This document shows positions 1 through 6,070 of a DNA stretch of 6,070 nucleotides, piece by piece. How positions within the stretch are numbered: position 1 is the stretch's first letter; each line of letters opens with the position of its first letter. The stretch comes from a virus (Duplodnaviria; Heunggongvirae; Uroviricota; Caudoviricetes), in IMG/VR virus record IMGVR_UViG_2529292869_000013; one strand, written 5' to 3'. Both the position numbers and the translations under genes were made by a program. The notes below the pieces were generated by a model, which worked only from the letters and a program-made list of their open reading frames with translations, was not told the DNA's origin and searched no databases.

Positions 1-1184
1 ATTTCCGGTGCCTTACCACTGATGAAGGCTGAGGTGCGCCCGGCTGCGTTCAGAATAGCGGTTGCCAGACGATCCGGAATAATGCTCCTGCGCGCCCATG
101 AACTGAAATGTGTCGGGCGGTTTGATGATACCTGGTTTCCATTCGTTCTCGATGCCGCACCGTAATATCCTGATGCCGGAATATCCGGATCTTCTGCCGG
201 CGCGTTAGTGGCGGTATTGACGCCGTTACCGTCTGTCATGAAGGGCACAAAATAAACGCCCTCACTCTCCCTGTTTTTATACCCGCCGTACACGGTGTCG
301 TACTGGGTAGCGTATGTATTTTTCCAGTAATACGTCGTGTCACCACAAATCCACGGCACATCTGCAGCACTGCCACCATGGCACTGCGCGTTAAACACGG
401 AGAGGTCAGCACGAAACTGTGCCAGCATGGCTGTAAACAGCGCAGGTTGCTGTGCGTGGGTGGCGGCGCTCATGTCAAACTCTCCCTGCATCCAGCACAC
501 CGCCAGCAACACATTTTTCGGGTTCTTCTGTAATGCAGCTTTAGTGCGCGCAATCAGGTCCTGATATAACGGTTTACCCACACCCCAGCGCGCCGAATCC
601 TGGCTGGCCCCCGCGTCCGCACTGAATGTCCCCTCAGCGCCCTGGGTGAATGCAGAACCACCACGACAGCATGGTACCAGCAGGATCCCCGCGTTATTCG
701 GGATATACGGAAGCAGTTTTTTGGCAATATGTAAGCCCTGGCCGACACAGCCGTACTGCCCTTTGCTCAGGTCTGCCTTCGGATGATTCAGCGTACTCAT
801 ATCCTGCACATCATGCAGGCAGTGGTCAGCCGGAATGATGTCGTTATACGTACAACTCTCTCCACCCGGAGTTACCGTGCTGCGGCGCGCCAGCTGTTTA
901 ATGCGCGGATCCGGAGCATCGTAAGAATCCGGTAACGGAAGCCCTTCACCGTAGGCCATGCCGTTGGACTGTCCGGCAAGCACAACCACGTAGAACCAGT
1001 CCGGCTTAGATGAAGGGCCGACCTGTGGATCTCCTTCAATAGCCACCGCCTGCATCAGTGTGTACGGCGTAATGGCAACCGGTCCGCCGTATGGCTGCCA
1101 GCCCTCTTTCAGTTTGTGTGTCAGCTTTTCCGCAAGGTCTGACGGCGACGCCGCCCTGACAACATCATAGTGTTTAAATGCCAT
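1..1184 (-). CDS. NanS-p-like sialate O-acetylesterase (DUF1737-type N-terminal domain fused to SGNH/SASA esterase domain); partial, 3' end runs off the window start
   Basis: ATG at 1184..1182 preceded by SD GGGAGGA. Translation begins MAFKHYDVVRAASPSDLAEKLTHKLKEGWQPYGG and contains VLAGQSNGMAYGEG (GQSN catalytic-Ser block of SGNH esterases). The frame stays open to position 1 (no complete minus-strand ORF is listed here in the track, consistent with an edge-truncated gene). Family assignment is from memory of prophage NanS-p proteins. Confidence 0.7.
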   Translation of the reverse strand, partial: MAFKHYDVVRAASPSDLAEKLTHKLKEGWQPYGGPVAITPYTLMQAVAIEGDPQVGPSSKPDWFYVVVLAGQSNGMAYGEGLPLPDSYDAPDPRIKQLARRSTVTPGGESCTYNDIIPADHCLHDVQDMSTLNHPKADLSKGQYGCVGQGLHIAKKLLPYIPNNAGILLVPCCRGGSAFTQGAEGTFSADAGASQDSARWGVGKPLYQDLIARTKAALQKNPKNVLLAVCWMQGEFDMSAATHAQQPALFTAMLAQFRADLSVFNAQCHGGSAADVPWICGDTTYYWKNTYATQYDTVYGGYKNRESEGVYFVPFMTDGNGVNTATNAPAEDPDIPASGYYGAASRTNGNQVSSNRPTHFSSWARRSIIPDRLATAILNAAGRTSAFISGKAPE

Positions 1185-1377
1185 GAATCCTCCCGGCCGG
1201 GATAATATTGTGAGTAAAATGAGGAGCGGGCTGAAGTCCGGAAGTTACAGGACAATGGCAGAAGAGAGACAACAGCCCGCAATACGAAAAAGGCCGCGCT
1301 ATTGCGCAGAGTGATTACTGTCGGATATTATTCGCCAGCTGAAATATTACTTCACGTTTTGTTGTTTATTCCTTGCC

Positions 1378-1406
1378 GCCCGCGTCTCCCTGCGCGGGCT
1401 TTTTTT
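1378..1406 (+). terminator. Intrinsic terminator, plus-strand orientation
   Basis: Perfect 7-bp GC stem GCCCGCG (1378..1384) / CGCGGGC (1393..1399) with an 8-nt loop, followed by T7 (1400..1406). Confidence 0.5.
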
Positions 1407-1408
1407 GT

Positions 1409-1437
1409 CCATAAGAAAGCCCCTCCGGAGAGGGGCT
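1409..1437 (-). terminator. Hairpin with weak U-tract, minus-strand orientation (possible terminator)
   Basis: 8-bp stem AGCCCCTC / GAGGGGCT (1418..1437) with 4-nt loop. On the minus strand it is followed by TTCTTAT. Lies back-to-back with the plus-strand terminator. Confidence 0.3.
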
Positions 1438-1633
1438 GGAGAGTGGCGCTATGTGCCATTGCATGGTGCCGGGTGCCTCCCGGTGAATTCAGTACCAGCA
1501 CCTGAATCCGCGATTATCCCATATACCTACTCGCTGATTGCCCCTCCGCACAGGGGGATTCACCATGCCAGTTTCTTTTAACAAACTCCCCGCAAACCAG
1601 ACAACAGTCAACCGCCTGAATTGTGAGACATTT

Positions 1634-1659
1634 AAAAAAAAGGCCCGCAAAAGCGAGCC
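1634..1659 (-). terminator. Intrinsic terminator 14 nt downstream of the tRNA cluster
   Basis: Minus-strand reading GGCTCGC-TTTT-GCGGGCC (7-bp stem including one G.U pair) followed by T8 (complement of the A8 run at 1634..1641). Confidence 0.55.
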
Positions 1660-1673
1660 AGGGAAAATAAGTG

Positions 1674-1750
1674 TGGCGCGTTGTACTGGATTCGAACCAG
1701 TGACCGATTGCTTAGAAGGCAATTGCTCTGTCCGGCTGAGCTAACAACGC
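1674..1750 (-). tRNA. argO: tRNA-Arg, anticodon UCU
   Basis: 77-nt cloverleaf folded by hand: perfect acceptor stem GCGTTGT/ACAACGC, D-arm GCTC...GAGC, anticodon stem ATTGC/GCAAT with loop CTTCTAA, T-arm ACTGG-TTCGAAT-CCAGT, discriminator G, encoded CCA. Symbol assigned by position in the ileZ-argN-argO cluster recalled from 933W-type phages. Confidence 0.85.
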
Positions 1751-1763
1751 AGGATACAGATAA

Positions 1764-1840
1764 TGGACCGCCTTCGGGGACCCGAACTCCGCGCAACCAG
1801 CTTCGAAAGCTGGCGCTCTTTCCTGATGAGCTAATGGCGG
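1764..1840 (-). tRNA. argN: tRNA-Arg-like, anticodon UCG by hand folding; imperfect stems
   Basis: D-arm GCTC/GAGC and anticodon stem CCAGC/GCTGG are perfect, loop TTTCGAA, encoded CCA. The acceptor stem has an A-A mismatch (6-67), the T-stem has an A-C mismatch and the T-loop is TTCGGGT. Symbol is positional only. Confidence 0.5.
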
Positions 1841-1847
1841 TATGTGA

Positions 1848-1923
1848 TGGTGGCCCTTGCTGGATTTGAACCAGCGACCTGGCGATTATGAGTCGCTCGC
1901 TCTCACCACTGAGCTAAAGGGCC
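1848..1923 (-). tRNA. ileZ: tRNA-Ile2-like, anticodon CAU (ileX/ileZ type, presumed lysidine-modified)
   Basis: 76-nt cloverleaf: acceptor GGCCCTT/AAGGGCC, D-arm GCTC-AGTGGTGA-GAGC, anticodon loop CTCATAA, T-arm GCTGG-TTCAAAT-CCAGC, encoded CCA. Closely resembles the E. coli ileX sequence as I recall it. Confidence 0.85.
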
Positions 1924-1951
1924 GGGTCAAAAAATAATAATCAGATGAAAA

Positions 1952-2665
1952 TCAATAATCAAGCCCTTGCCTGGATACATATCTGTCTGGCGGGAAGCCA
2001 TAATAGCGGTGAAATACAGAAATAAAGTAGGACCAGCTTGAATAACCACATTTTTCTGCTACAGCCTGTCCATATCCATACCGGGAACATAACATATTGA
2101 CAGCAACACGCATCCGCTCTTCCAGCAACAAGCGACTGAACATGTGCCCTTCATTTTTCAGTTTTGTCTTTAACAAACTCTCACTCATATGCAGGCGTAA
2201 CGCAATCGCACCAAGCGTCCAGCTTGCTGATATATCTGTCTGAATTATCGCCCTGACTTTGGCACTTATACTGGATAAACATCCACTTAAAAACAATGAC
2301 ATCCGTTCATCTGTTTCAAACAGAGACAGGCAGGCCATCATAAGAAACATATCCGTGACCTCTCCGGAAAATCCCTGGCTGGTAATTAAAGCCGCAGCCA
2401 ACGCAGGATTGTTGGGTTCCAGCAACAGGTAAAGCGGAATGTCAGTCAGATGAGTTCTTGTCAGCTTATGCTGAATTTCCAGATATTGACTTACTATGGA
2501 ATGGTTTATATCGAAAATTTTAACTTTGCCATAATGCATAAGGAAAAGCGCCCTGATGCATTTGGTGGCCAGAACGACTGAGCCTGGCTTAAGTGACAAC
2601 GTATCCTTTTCAAGAAAAATATTAATTGGGGAGCAAACCATGATAACTGAACAGACAACAGCCAT
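1952..2665 (-). CDS. AraC-family transcriptional regulator, AppY/GadX/YdeO-like
   Basis: 237-aa ORF. N-terminus MAVVCSVIMVCS parallels AppY MDYVCSVV as recalled. C-terminus has the AraC-type HTH signature (LCSRYGYGQAVAEKCGYSSWSYFISVFHRYYGFPP). AT-rich, roughly 30% G+C on a hand-counted line. Confidence 0.75.
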   Translation of the reverse strand: MAVVCSVIMVCSPINIFLEKDTLSLKPGSVVLATKCIRALFLMHYGKVKIFDINHSIVSQYLEIQHKLTRTHLTDIPLYLLLEPNNPALAAALITSQGFSGEVTDMFLMMACLSLFETDERMSLFLSGCLSSISAKVRAIIQTDISASWTLGAIALRLHMSESLLKTKLKNEGHMFSRLLLEERMRVAVNMLCSRYGYGQAVAEKCGYSSWSYFISVFHRYYGFPPDRYVSRQGLDY

Positions 2666-2790
2666 TATAATTTTACTTTCATTAGCAATTGGTTAGCTCA
2701 ATTATAGCCCCAAAAGGTAAATTATCATCAACACATAAGCAAAGGACTGACAGGTGCCGCTAACACCCACCAGCCGCCCATTTACCACAA

Positions 2791-2816
2791 ATAAAAAAGC
2801 CTTCAGGACTGAAGGC
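2791..2816 (-). terminator. Intrinsic terminator overlapping the stop codon of the small ORF
   Basis: 7-bp stem GCCTTCA/TGAAGGC (2799..2816) with 4-nt loop, followed on the minus strand by TTTTTTATTT (2798..2789). Confidence 0.5.
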
Positions 2817-3000
2817 GTCTGTAACAACCGAACTGATAGTCTGCCAGACCCGCCATAACCAGCTGGGTCAGTATTAACTGGCAGCGTTCGCGTGAAAGGT
2901 AAGTATTCTGCGCAATCTCCCCGACTGTCGCCGGTTCGGTAACGCTTAATTCATTAAACACCACTCTGGCGGTTTCTGTCATATCCTGCTGTTTCAGCAT
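2803..3000 (-). CDS. Small (65 aa) putative winged-helix DNA-binding protein; family uncertain, possibly PapI/FaeA-like
   Basis: Complete ORF with ATG at 3000 and its own downstream terminator. The segment PATVGEIAQNTYLSRERCQLILTQLVMAGLA has the look of a helix-turn-helix recognition unit. No family could be assigned with confidence. Confidence 0.5.
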   Translation of the reverse strand: MLKQQDMTETARVVFNELSVTEPATVGEIAQNTYLSRERCQLILTQLVMAGLADYQFGCYRRLQS

Positions 3001-3124
3001 GTCTTTTTACCCTTTCCGGTTAACGTGACACACCAATAACTCTTGTCGAAAAAGCCAGCAAGCTGAAAGACCGGTATTAATAACCACCAGCGACATTTAA
3101 CGCACTGCGCTACTTTGCGGGCAC

Positions 3125-3146
3125 AAAAAACCCGCTCAGAGGCGGG
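3125..3146 (-). terminator. Intrinsic terminator downstream of the CPBP gene
   Basis: Minus-strand reading CCCGC-CTCTGA-GCGGG followed by T6 (complement of A6 at 3125..3130). Confidence 0.45.
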
Positions 3147-3287
3147 GTCAAGCTATGCGGCGAAATAACCACTCTTAACAGCATACCTGATTTTTTACGT
3201 ACGTAAATGCTTTGCCGTGCATATTTTTCATGCAAATGTCACGTCCTGCTATTTTTCAGTCTTATAAATTTAAAACCATAGAAAAAA

Positions 3288-4106
3288 TCAATTATGTTTT
3301 AAAAATGGATAGGTAAAGAATAACAAGTGACACAGATTCAAACCAAAATGGAAAAGGGTGGCAACCCACAAACGCCCACTCCACATCCATGACAATCCAT
3401 ACACAACACCAGATAACGTGGCAAATAATACAAGTAAAGCACCACCTGAATAGTGATAAAAACCAAACAACAAAGCCGCCACAATTAATGCAACCAATGG
3501 AGACGTTACTTCTGATAGCCGTGATTGAATATACCCTCTAAATAATGATTCCTCTGCCAGAGACACAAAAAACAAATTAGCCAATATAAACTCTGGCAAC
3601 CACTCAGGAAAATGAATCTCTGGCTTTAATCCACCAAAAAAAACAGCCAAAAACAGGATAAGAGGAACAGAGAGCGACAGAGCCCCCCACTTCCACAAAG
3701 ACACTTCTGATTTTACTTCTTTTTTAAACAAAGAAGATGTACACAGGACTAACAAAAATGGCACCAGCGCTTTATCAAAATTAAAATACATTGTATAGGG
3801 AGTACTTTGAGGGCCAACAGTAACAGAATTTAGCACTACAGGATTGTGAAACCCTGGCCATAGATGGAAAAATAATGCTATGGCTGATAAAACTATGCCA
3901 ACTTCATATATAGATTTAGCCCAGGCGTTATATTTCCAGTTGAACTTCAAAATAATAAAAAAAACGATTGTAGCAACAAAAAATAACACCGACCAATCAA
4001 TAATATCATTAAGCACAGCCAGGACAACAGACACCGTCAACAATGAAAAAGCCACTACCTTATGCCAACTGAGAGTTGACAGTGACAGTACTAACACAAT
4101 CCACAT
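3288..4106 (-). CDS. CPBP-family intramembrane metalloprotease (CAAX protease / Abi domain), multi-pass membrane protein
   Basis: Highly hydrophobic translation with multiple predicted TM segments. All three CPBP signature motifs are present in order: EESLFR (EExxxR), FGFYH (FxxxH), HFGLN (HxxxN). Start chosen as ATG 4106..4104 with SD AAGGAG 5 nt upstream; the track's GTG at 4112 directly abuts the SD. Roughly 30% G+C. Confidence 0.75.
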   Translation of the reverse strand: MWIVLVLSLSTLSWHKVVAFSLLTVSVVLAVLNDIIDWSVLFFVATIVFFIILKFNWKYNAWAKSIYEVGIVLSAIALFFHLWPGFHNPVVLNSVTVGPQSTPYTMYFNFDKALVPFLLVLCTSSLFKKEVKSEVSLWKWGALSLSVPLILFLAVFFGGLKPEIHFPEWLPEFILANLFFVSLAEESLFRGYIQSRLSEVTSPLVALIVAALLFGFYHYSGGALLVLFATLSGVVYGLSWMWSGRLWVATLFHFGLNLCHLLFFTYPFLKHN

Positions 4107-4137
4107 AAGCACTCCTTTTATTTAATGATGAAGATTG

Positions 4138-4166
4138 ATTATCAATATTTTCAATTCACCAGGCAA
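4138..4166 (-). promoter_or_regulatory. Candidate sigma70 promoter (TTGCCT-N17-GATAAT) between Q and the CPBP gene; possibly the late promoter region
   Basis: Minus-strand -35 TTGCCT (4166..4161) and -10 GATAAT (4143..4138), about 30 nt upstream of the CPBP start. A second TATAAT sits at 4222..4217 with a poor -35. Hexamer match only. Confidence 0.25.
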
Positions 4167-4257
4167 CATTTTATCTACCTTCCACAATACATGACCATCA
4201 AAAAATAAACATGTTAATTATAAACACAGAAAACATAACCCTCATCACTATATATCC

Positions 4258-4629
4258 CTACCGCATATCCATATCTAACCGGACATTCAGAGCCATAAGC
4301 ATTCCTTCAATAATACCTTCCGCTTTATAAAGCCTTTTACCAATAAGCCCATCAGAACATCTATGCTTACGTGCAAGAGCCATAAATGTCATTCCACCTA
4401 CGTAATAATCCACCAACAAATCGTGCAAATACTGATTATTCTTGTTTAATCGTGCCATACAACCACAAATTATCATGGCGTCATCATCAGAACACTTAGG
4501 ACGTGATTTCACTTTAGTCGGGATTAATCCTTTAAAACCAGCAGCTATCGAGGGCCATGTTACATCTTCATGATTATTTGCTGCCCATGCCCCCCATCGC
4601 TCAAGAACCATCTGGATATCACGCGCCAT
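4258..4629 (-). CDS. Phage late-gene antitermination protein Q (short QuuD/phage-82-like type)
   Basis: 123 aa from ATG 4629..4627 (SD GAGGTGG upstream; the GTG at 4638 abuts the SD). Cys-rich ([21 protein letters not shown]), consistent with a zinc-binding Q. Sits immediately after rusA with overlapping stop/start, as in DLP12. Confidence 0.7.
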
Positions 4630-4989
4630 CGTTACCACCTCTGATTTCGTAAATCTTCACGCCCAGCCGTCCACCTGGCACAGGCTGACCGCGCACAATA
4701 TTGATTTCATCAAACTGCTCGTCATCAATGAGCACTTCCGCATGCGTCAGCGCATCCAGCGGTGCTTTCAGAATGTTGTCCAGGTCACGGCGGCGCTTAT
4801 CCGGTGGTTCTGCAATAATTTTTATGCCAGCCGTCCGGACAGGCTTAATTTCAGCCGCTGCTGGCGAACAATAAGCGCCACAGCCCGGCGATAACGCTCA
4901 CCGGCTTTTGATACAAAATATGTGCTGCCACGACGTCGCCAGTAGGTGTTCACCGTCGGCGGGTAAGGCAAAACAAACTCTATACGCAT
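4619..4989 (-). pseudogene. rusA: rusA Holliday-junction resolvase, interrupted by a -1 frameshift near 4822..4826
   Basis: ATG 4989 with SD AAGAGGT gives MRIEFVLPYPPTVNTYWRRRGSTYF...LSGRLA then TAA at 4824..4822. The +2 frame continues [68 protein letters not shown], matching the RusA C-terminal half, to TGA at 4621..4619. The break sits at a run of five T (4819..4823). Confidence 0.65.
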
Positions 4990-5001: not shown

Positions 5002-6051
5002 TTACCCGAGCACGCCGGTTGCAAAGGCGTGATCAAGAAAACGAAAAATTAAATCAACCTGGGAACCATGCTTTTCTTCGAACGCCAGCGGATCCGCATG
5101 AAGCTCGTTGTGATGCTCCCGACACAGCGGTAGCGTGAAAATATCGTGGGATTTTGTTCCCATTCCCCCCTGACCATGACCAATCAGATGATGAGGATCG
5201 TCCGCTGGCTTACCACAACACGCACACGGCTGTGTCTTTACCCAGCGTGTGTATTTCTCATTTACCCAGCGGCGACGTTTAGGTCGTTTCATGAAGGATT
5301 CCGGAGACTCCGGATCAACGGCAATGCTGACCACCGTCTTTTCCTGTGGTGGGTTCTGTTGCTGGTGGGTGTGAGGCGGTAGCGCAATATTTTTTGTGCG
5401 CTGCTTCAGTATGCTGGTGGCGGTCTGTTCTCCCGGTATGATGTCGCTTTCACGGTATACGGAGCGGATTTTTTCCGCACGCAACCCCAGCGAACGACGT
5501 AATACCGCTTCCGGTAGCGCGTCCGCCACCTGATTGCGGACCGCCCACCAGGATAATTCAGCCAGAGATAATTCACGCTCCTGTGCGCCATTCATTGCGT
5601 GACGGATGATGTCAATCATCCAGGCGGCCAGATTCTGTTGAGCAAGTTGATCCAGTGAATCAGATGTCTGCTCCCGCAGCTGGTTGTCGCAGTGCCAGCA
5701 CAACACCATCGCGCCGGTACCGTAACGGTGAATAACGGTTTCGCTGTGATGATAATCACCGTGTGGCCACTGGCAGGATTTCACGTGACGTAATAACCAG
5801 TCAGACAGTGCACCAGCGCCGCCAGCTGCACGAATCACCCGCTCATCGCTGAAAAATGGCAGCAGTGATTTATCTTCCGCCAGCGGCTGGCGAACAGCAG
5901 GAACCGCTCCAGATGGCAGCGCCCGCATGTTTTTCGGTTCCGGCTCCACCAGCACCCTGCCGCGATGAAAAACTGGCAATGATTCACGACCGGGCTTAAG
6001 GACCACCAGCCCGAGTTCCGGAACCAGAACAGGTCGAAGTAATACCCGCAC
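5002..6051 (-). CDS. DUF968-like prophage protein (YdfU-like) with C-terminal HNH-like Cys/His motif
   Basis: 349-aa ORF ending TAA at 5004..5002, 12 nt before rusA. C-terminal region PCACCGKPADDPHHLIGHG...LPLCREHHNELH has the CxxC...HH...C...HH spacing of HNH-type zinc fingers. The 5' start (GTG at 6051, SD GGAGGT only 4 nt upstream) lies 20 nt from the window edge and is uncertain. Confidence 0.6.
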   Translation of the reverse strand: MRVLLRPVLVPELGLVVLKPGRESLPVFHRGRVLVEPEPKNMRALPSGAVPAVRQPLAEDKSLLPFFSDERVIRAAGGAGALSDWLLRHVKSCQWPHGDYHHSETVIHRYGTGAMVLCWHCDNQLREQTSDSLDQLAQQNLAAWMIDIIRHAMNGAQERELSLAELSWWAVRNQVADALPEAVLRRSLGLRAEKIRSVYRESDIIPGEQTATSILKQRTKNIALPPHTHQQQNPPQEKTVVSIAVDPESPESFMKRPKRRRWVNEKYTRWVKTQPCACCGKPADDPHHLIGHGQGGMGTKSHDIFTLPLCREHHNELHADPLAFEEKHGSQVDLIFRFLDHAFATGVLG

Positions 6052-6070
6052 ATTACCTCCAGACGCGCTG

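Follow-up and report, generated by a model that had tools for sequence, protein, structure and literature searches.

The question raised by this locus is which regulator is encoded at positions 1952–2665 of the window (the whole stretch of DNA that was analysed, 6,070 nucleotides) and whether it could act on the regulons of its host. Judged by protein identity and gene order, the gene belongs to the Psr pair (prophage-encoded secretion regulators) known from EHEC O157:H7, and it is situated at the psrA locus of an Sp4-type lambdoid prophage. The explanation as a whole, namely a psrA/psrB-mosaic Psr allele with PsrA/PsrB-like function that is carried as late-region cargo with its own promoter, is assigned a probability of roughly 85%. 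The gene is described as follows:

1952–2665, minus strand: psr gene, encoding a 237-aa AraC/XylS-type regulator, psrA/psrB mosaic (ORF, Pfam matches and identities)

The open reading frame was intact, with an ATG start and a stop codon within these coordinates, and its 237-aa product exceeded the Pfam cut-offs for both HTH_18 (37.5 bits against a gathering score of 33.6, residues 155–230) and HTH_AraC (40.2 bits against 26.6), in agreement with the initial annotation, which had placed an AraC regulator here. Additionally, the PHROG family phrog_1450 spanned the full product (E = 2.4e-97); the domain and family matches are far beyond chance. The AT-rich composition that had been noted was likewise borne out, with a GC content of 42.9% in the gene and 40.6% in the enclosing block (1950–4650), compared to approximately 54% in both flanks. 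The exact 237-aa protein corresponds to WP_000301780.1/EFX35064.1, from a draft O157:H7 genome. Regarding the labels attached to the gene, RefSeq (PGAP) gives only "helix-turn-helix domain-containing protein", and the source record gives "putative envelope protein", which is a mislabel. As for the start codon, the Sakai annotation reads both Sakai copies as 195-aa proteins from an internal start at Met43. This reading was ruled out because residues 1–42 are conserved in homologues as distant as 39% identity and the product aligns from residue 1 onward with GadW, YdeO, AppY and the YdeO profile, so that the 237-aa start given by PGAP appears to be the better reading.

The psr product is a two-domain AraC/XylS protein, composed of a beta-rich N-terminal domain (approximately 130 aa) followed by a double helix-turn-helix domain; as expected for this family, the two helix-turn-helix motifs lie within the C-terminal ~100 aa. 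An AlphaFold2 model was built from a 14-sequence family alignment and reached a mean pLDDT of 73.9. The predicted C-terminal domain (residues ~133–232) is helical, with pLDDT values of 84–96, and the N-terminal domain was modelled as small and beta-rich, followed by helices, at low confidence (pLDDT 46–76). The modelled DNA-binding domain superposed on that of GadX (3mkl) at 1.5 A with a target TM-score of 0.90, and a sequence search of the PDB matched the GadX DNA-binding domain to the psr product with E = 3.3e-18. The top full-length fold matches of the model were Rns, CsvR and ToxT (Foldseek E ~1e-9 to 1e-10).

When considering the regulators to which the protein had initially been compared, the likeness to AppY, YdeO and GadX was found to be real, but it did not extend to orthology. 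The product aligned over its full length with GadW (34.6% identity), YdeO of K-12 (30.4%) and AppY of K-12 (28.8%), sharing with these three the N-terminal motif M-x-V-C-S-V-I, whereas GadX was matched in the C-terminal half only (BLASTP, 41% over 129 residues). Another full-length match, at 37.9%, was the AraC-like protein ECs_0287 of Sp1/CP-933H, in which we infer PatE from the prophage and the annotation. With PatE included, these identities amount to 29–38%, and the family scores fell far below their cut-offs. For YdeO, NCBIfam NF007407 scored 103.9 bits against a cut-off of 348, although the alignment was full length, and for GadX, NF007432 scored 86.9 bits against 500 and covered residues 107–232 only; both orthologies were rejected. 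AppY was likewise rejected at 28.8% identity and with a prophage position other than the DLP12 site by ompT, as was PatE, the identity to ECs_0287, the one AraC-like gene that Sakai Sp1 contains, being 37.9%. By their alignments, GadW, YdeO, AppY and GadX appear to be paralogue-level relatives of the psr product.

The neighbourhood of the gene is composed of the following elements:

4258–4638, minus strand: late antiterminator Q (Pfam Phage_antitermQ, E = 8.7e-52)
3288–4112, minus strand: CPBP/CAAX-type intramembrane protease (Pfam Rce1-like, E = 1.4e-19; GC 37.8%)
2803–3000, minus strand: small 65-aa winged-helix-like ORF (phrog_331; weak TrmB-like match)
1848–1923, minus strand: tRNA ileZ, anticodon CAT, Ile2 type (tRNA scan and Sakai annotation), beginning 28 nt beyond the stop codon of psr
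1764–1840, minus strand: tRNA argN, anticodon TCG (tRNA scan and Sakai annotation)
1674–1750, minus strand: tRNA argO, anticodon TCT (tRNA scan and Sakai annotation)

The position directly upstream of phage tRNAs, as described initially, was thus confirmed with three tRNAs on the strand of psr. The reading of the first of them as Met(CAT) by ARAGORN was set aside in favour of ileZ/tRNA-Ile (anticodon cat), as annotated in Sakai, and tRNA-Ile, as given by RefSeq (PGAP). The protease, annotated in EDL933 as a CPBP family protease, is the first gene of an AT-rich cargo block downstream of Q. The small ORF always precedes psr, including in the Stx2k phage; it is intact in the window and in Sp11, while the Sp4/EDL933 version has lost 1 nt and carries a frameshift annotation. 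An Rfam scan of the window returned the three tRNAs and STnc100, with two sub-threshold chance matches, and none inside or antisense to psr.

Compared to O157:H7 lambdoid prophages, including that of EDL933, the window exhibited 98.2–98.6% identity and was colinear over all 6063 aligned bases. Its gene order from DUF968 to the esterase is identical to that of Sakai Sp4 and EDL933, Sp4 being arranged as DUF968, RusA, Q, CPBP/CAAX protease, the small ORF ECs_1086, ECs_1087, ileZ, argN, argO, the esterase ECs_1088, IS629 and pchA; this colinearity identifies the psrA locus of a lambdoid prophage. The colinear loci carry a PerC-family gene, which is pchA in Sakai, from ~1 kb (Z570) to ~4 kb (Sakai) past the left end of the window, and the Sp11 copy of psr is accompanied by pchB and nleG genes. 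The psr family was detected in 927 of 5,426 complete E. coli genomes, often as two copies. Likewise, the complete phage phiSTEC1575-Stx2k carries a 90%-identical psr in the same slot, in the order Q, small ORFs, TrmB-like ORF, psr, ileZ-argN-argO, and stx2k A and B.

A relationship to the AraC-like regulators of EHEC prophages had also been proposed, and the nearest homologues of the protein were indeed PsrA and the probable PsrB rather than AraC proteins of unrelated function. The protein was identical to PsrA at 225 of 237 residues (94.9%) and to the Sp11 copy ECs_2191 at 227 of 237 (95.8%), and PsrA and ECs_2191 were identical to each other at 215 of 237 (90.7%); such high identity over the full length is what defines the Psr family. 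For these comparisons ECs_1087 was extended to its upstream ATG, which yields 237 aa and the same protein as that of EDL933 at the colinear locus. The gene psrA is ecs1087 in Sp4 according to a 2026 paper of the group that named it (PMC13502914). Reviews put psrA in OI-50, at odds with the Sakai prophage that bears the OI-50 effectors, Sp6, in which a search for psr found none; the Sakai assignment to ECs_1087 (Sp4) was followed here. The second O157:H7 copy, ECs_2191, is located in Sakai prophage Sp11, and psrB was absent from Sakai Sp9 and Sp10. Sp11 also carries nleG2-3, nleG6-2 and nleG5-2, which are known from the literature as effectors of OI-57, the island of psrB/z2104. Because Sp11 bears these effectors and the 90.7% identity matches the published value of 90% for PsrA and PsrB (PMC10877973, PMC8565820; reviews), we infer ECs_2191 to be z2104, that is, PsrB, from synteny and percent identity rather than from a locus-tag table. 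A literature search by the psr locus tags (z2104, z1789, ECs1087) returned nothing further beyond the reviews.

The sequence around psr was scanned for transcription signals, of which the following were retained:

2799–2816, minus strand: terminator-like hairpin with T-run where the upstream small ORF ends (sequence scan)
2701–2728, minus strand: candidate sigma-70 promoter of psr, ATGATA-16-TATAAT (consensus scan, 10/12 matches)
1934–1962, minus strand: promoter-like element for the tRNA cluster, TTGATT-17-TATTAT (consensus scan)
1642–1659, minus strand: terminator-like hairpin and T-run after argO, the first strong terminator downstream of psr (scan)

The psr promoter candidate was the best sigma-70-like match in the scanned region (1100–4700), with a predicted 5′ UTR of ~30 nt, and its stretch is the same at every site in the window and at the psrA and psrB loci. 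The hairpin at 2799–2816 would separate the small ORF from psr unless the RNA polymerase is Q-modified. Between psr and ileZ, the sequence scan revealed no convincing terminator and only a weak hairpin (1960–1973). The −35 hexamer of the tRNA element extends over the end of psr, covering parts of its last codons and its stop codon. In Sp9 and Sp10, ileZ is preceded by a DNA methylase gene or by Q, yet the TTATTATT −10-like box is kept at an equal distance from the tRNA; given this conservation behind a different upstream gene, the tRNAs probably have their own promoter. Further promoter-like sites were found at 4125–4197, downstream of Q. The upstream position of Q places psr and the rest of the block in the phage late-transcription region. 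In the lysogen, psr would be expressed from its own sigma-70-like promoter; on induction, since the gene lies downstream of Q and no strong terminator precedes the tRNAs, read-through from the late promoter would over-transcribe it together with ileZ-argN-argO. On the strength of these predicted signals, psr is best regarded as late-region cargo, for which expression from its own promoter in the lysogen is probable and late read-through likely.

Silencing of psr by H-NS/Hha is plausible in view of the low GC content and of a report on the sRNA HnrS, in which psrA expression was lower in an hnrS mutant and rose after a pulse of HnrS, which represses hha (PMC13502914). Hha is a partner of H-NS, and the authors of that report deem the effect on psrA indirect (PMC13502914). 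A copy of HnrS encoded in the window was considered but is unlikely, given that HnrS is reported in Sp9, Sp10 and Sp12 and not in Sp4.

Comparison with both Sakai copies revealed that the gene combines the two:

~1923–3085, no strand: tract alternating psrA-locus (Sp4) and psrB-locus (Sp11) nucleotide states (alignment)

Of the 42 nucleotide sites that distinguish psrA from psrB, the window has the A state at 21 and the B state at 21, with 0 private substitutions across the whole gene. These states form 8 runs, compared to 22 expected with independent sites (z = −4.4). At the protein level, PsrA and the Sp11 copy are distinguished by 22 residues, at which the window protein shows 10 PsrA states (within residues 39–72, together with R157, H174 and W211) and 12 Sp11 states (residue 2, residues 76–123, T167 and Y196). 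The N-terminal 75 residues, except residue 2, are of PsrA type. Within the DNA-binding domain, R157, H174 and W211 of PsrA type are thereby mixed with T167 and Y196 of Sp11 type. Because it combines residue states of both proteins, the allele could differ from PsrA and PsrB in activity or specificity. The tract coincides exactly with the whole alignable zone of the Sp4 and Sp11 loci. Provided that it is not an assembly artefact, the mosaic is explained most simply by recombination between two resident prophages.

The artefact in question would be a collapsed repeat, in which the contig represents a consensus of psrA (Sp4-like) and psrB (Sp11-like) reads and the strain possesses two ordinary alleles, a reading to which we give not far short of even odds. 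The window is the whole of a short contig from a draft genome; its exact protein is a singleton, present in that contig only among ~15 billion proteins, and the ORF was found at ≥99% identity in 0 of the 5,426 complete E. coli genomes, the best value being 97.6%. The restriction of all 42 variable sites to A or B states, without a private substitution, and the extent of the tract, which matches the alignable zone of both loci, also favour a consensus. The same applies to the far end of the contig (5600–6070, the 5′ part of the DUF968 gene), which is nearer to Sp11 than to Sp4 (96.0% versus 89.7%), and to rusA, which bears a 1-nt deletion relative to all eight aligned prophage copies (five strains) that could be a sequencing error. 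The arrangement of the states in 8 blocks instead of 22 argues against a collapse, however, and both flanks of the tract run into Sp4-specific sequence (the CPBP protease and argN) that is absent from the Sp11 locus. Moreover, the finished genome of O103:H2 12009 carries another clean psr mosaic, of B type in the first two thirds and of A type in the last third, with one informative site that matches neither and with 0 private changes where psrA and psrB agree; as this genome is finished, natural recombination between psr alleles does occur. A joint reading, which we hold only tentatively and which is more doubtful than not, is that a real exchange of ~70–150 nt between psrA and psrB in one O157:H7 genome would have given rise to hybrid regulators, a repaired small ORF and a tuned GadE/LEE switch, with psr boosted by Q like stx in the same slot. 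If the mosaic is real, such hybrids recombine N-terminal segments with residues of the DNA-binding domain.

Regarding function, the effect on host regulons that had been suggested for this gene has already been the subject of experiments on PsrA and PsrB (PMC10877973, PMC8565820, PMC4456613; reviews). Both raise GadE and YhiF, and LEE type III secretion is thereby indirectly repressed (PMC10877973, PMC8565820, PMC4456613; reviews). Deletion of psrA raises secretion and deletion of psrB does not, so that the two are not fully equivalent; the psrA deletion phenotype was complemented, and PsrA contributes to persistence and colonisation in sheep (PMC10877973, PMC8565820; reviews). PsrB binds the gadE promoter and the hdeA promoter from −132 to −45, the binding reported in PMC10877973, PMC8565820 and PMC4456613 (reviews), and it increases survival in the mouse stomach as well as at low pH (same sources). 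AppY likewise targets gadE directly (PMC10057817). By homology, and given its 95–96% identity, the window Psr should act like PsrA/PsrB. It would bind AT-rich promoters within the GAD acid-fitness island (for PsrB, those of gadE and hdeA) and would activate gadE, yhiF and hdeA, with a rise in GadE and YhiF; this rise would increase acid resistance and repress the LEE operons, resulting in less type III secretion. Between psrA and psrB, dN/dS was 0.43 for the gene as a whole, with values of 0.54 for the N-terminal domain and 0.27 for the DNA-binding domain, and the selection is purifying, but not strong.

Two other views of this function were weighed against the PsrA/PsrB-like role, and both were considered improbable. 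The regulator might serve mainly the phage, acting on late genes, tRNAs or cargo such as the CPBP protease, the acid effects on the host being side effects of overexpression. The location in the late region, after Q and immediately before the tRNAs, is consistent with this idea, as are the Stx2k phage, where psr lies immediately upstream of the tRNAs and stx, and the same small HTH-like ORF that is always ahead of psr. Nevertheless, the reviews report the psrA deletion phenotype and its complementation, the binding of PsrB to hdeA and gadE and the sheep colonisation phenotype, while the nearest chromosomal homologues, GadW and YdeO, and AppY of DLP12 act on the same host regulon; the tRNA promoter, for its part, is kept in psr-free prophages. 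The gene might instead be a silent relic, shut down by H-NS/Hha and making no natural contribution, which we regard as similarly unlikely. The low GC content of the gene (42.9%) and of the block (40.6%), the rise in psrA RNA when HnrS represses Hha (PMC13502914) and the little effect on secretion of deleting psrB alone (reviews) would fit a relic, yet the ORF is intact, the dN/dS is 0.43 (0.27 for the DNA-binding domain), 927 of 5,426 complete genomes have kept the family, often in two copies, and deletion phenotypes have been reported for psrA (reviews). A regulator of the PsrA/PsrB kind is the reading adopted here.

The Psr regulator is already known, and only the block-wise combination of psrA and psrB, possibly an artefact of assembly, goes beyond the literature. 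The name Psr is the correct annotation and ties the gene to a known prophage circuit that controls acid resistance and type III secretion in EHEC; beyond this, its importance is small. If the mosaic is genuine, it provides a small, clean case of gene conversion between co-resident prophages that reshapes a virulence regulator, and it is a reminder that strain comparisons should not take psrA and psrB to be fixed entities. Since psr occupies the slot between Q and the tRNAs, just upstream of stx in the Stx2k phage, a link between prophage induction and the switch between acid resistance and type III secretion is suggested.

When compared to known systems, the psr product has the AraC double helix-turn-helix domain in common with Rns, CsvR and ToxT, at ~20% identity, and the N-terminal domain of the model is too low in confidence for a comparison of the fatty-acid pocket. 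GadW, YdeO, AppY and GadX of K-12 belong to the same AraC/XylS subfamily and have the same two-domain layout; all of them converge on gadE and the acid-fitness island, and AppY is prophage-borne as well (DLP12). PatE (z0321 of CP-933H/Sp1; candidate ECs_0287) is a full-length homologue with the same N-terminal motif; like Psr, it is an AraC-like protein encoded by a prophage, and it activates the same acid-resistance genes. In contrast to psr, it is located in another prophage, near the prophage end and outside the slot between Q and the tRNAs. PsrB (probably ECs_2191 of Sp11; z2104, OI-57) is identical to the window protein at residues 76–123, T167 and Y196, and the small ORF ahead of its gene is likewise intact and matches that of the window in type. 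However, 10 residues of the window protein are of PsrA type, and the Sp11 locus differs in having a DUF1133-type antiterminator and a TerB-like gene after the tRNAs and in lacking the CPBP protease and argN. Finally, PsrA (ECs_1087 of Sp4; z1789 in EDL933) shares with the window protein the locus, the length of 237 aa and 94.9% identity. The flanks of the two loci are the same, with Q, the CPBP protease and the small ORF upstream and ileZ, argN, argO and the esterase downstream. The differences from PsrA consist of 12 residues of psrB type, mostly within 76–123 of the N-terminal domain and including T167 and Y196 of the DNA-binding domain, and of the small ORF upstream of psr, which is intact in the window and frameshifted at the psrA locus of Sakai and EDL933.

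The contig end provides a second patch of 'wrong-prophage' sequence in the window, as the 5′ part of the DUF968 gene shares 96.0% identity with the copy in prophage Sp11 of strain Sakai and only 89.7% with that in Sp4, the prophage with which the window is otherwise colinear. This patch bears on whether the mosaic of psrA and psrB alleles reflects conversion between resident prophages or an assembly artefact. The window features considered here are as follows:

1407-1597, minus strand, strong Rfam match (RF02076) to the STnc100 prophage sRNA family
2803-3000, minus strand, 65-aa small ORF (phrog_331) with a weak TrmB-like match
3288-4112, minus strand, CPBP/CAAX-type intramembrane protease
4617-4988, minus strand, rusA with a one-base deletion at about 4824
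5600-6070, minus strand, 5′ part of the DUF968 gene, compared with the Sp11 and Sp4 copies

The deletion in rusA (TTTTTA-TGCC in the window; the eight prophage copies aligned, which come from five strains, all have TTTTTATTGCC) shifts the reading frame and leaves a 55-aa ORF (4822-4989). Either rusA is a pseudogene or the draft contains a sequencing error here. At the psrA locus the protease gene, which is very AT-rich (37.8% GC), comes first after Q; the psrB locus lacks it. The small ORF always precedes psr; it is intact in the window, Sp11, O103:H2, and the Stx2k phage, is frameshifted at the psrA locus of Sakai and EDL933, and may represent a partner or regulator of psr.

The source record gives the window protein a mis-transferred label, 'putative envelope protein encoded within prophage CP-933N'. 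Both Sakai psr genes are annotated from the internal Met43 as 195-aa products that lack a conserved N-terminus. Reviews assign psrA (z1789) to OI-50, whose effectors espK, espN, and espX7/nleL are carried by Sakai Sp6; no psr gene was found in the whole Sp6 prophage, and accounts in the accessible literature disagree on how psrA maps from EDL933 to Sakai.

Between argO and the esterase gene, the STnc100 match scored 138 bits (gathering score, 47). RefSeq records annotate nothing in this stretch except, on the other strand, a pseudogene labelled as a partial 'hypothetical protein'. A 2026 preprint connects STnc100 with the PasD sRNAs and points out the association with esterase genes.

Between ileZ and the antiterminator, which may or may not be accompanied by the small ORF, lies a slot whose cargo varies by prophage (psr in Sp4 as well as Sp11), and the tRNA promoter-like box remains constant:

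L002 (Sakai psrA locus, Sp4) 23804-24391, ECs_1087
L014 (Sp11) 9932-10519, ECs_2191
L014 9828-10978, slot, psr
L011 (Sp9) 15632-17154, slot, DNA methylase
L012 (Sp10) 19011-19780, slot, empty
L015 (phage phiSTEC1575-Stx2k) 7001-9835, psr homologue region

In phiSTEC1575-Stx2k, an IraM-like anti-adapter gene is situated just 3′ of stx. This complete phage bears a psr homologue directly upstream of ileZ-argN-argO and stx2k.
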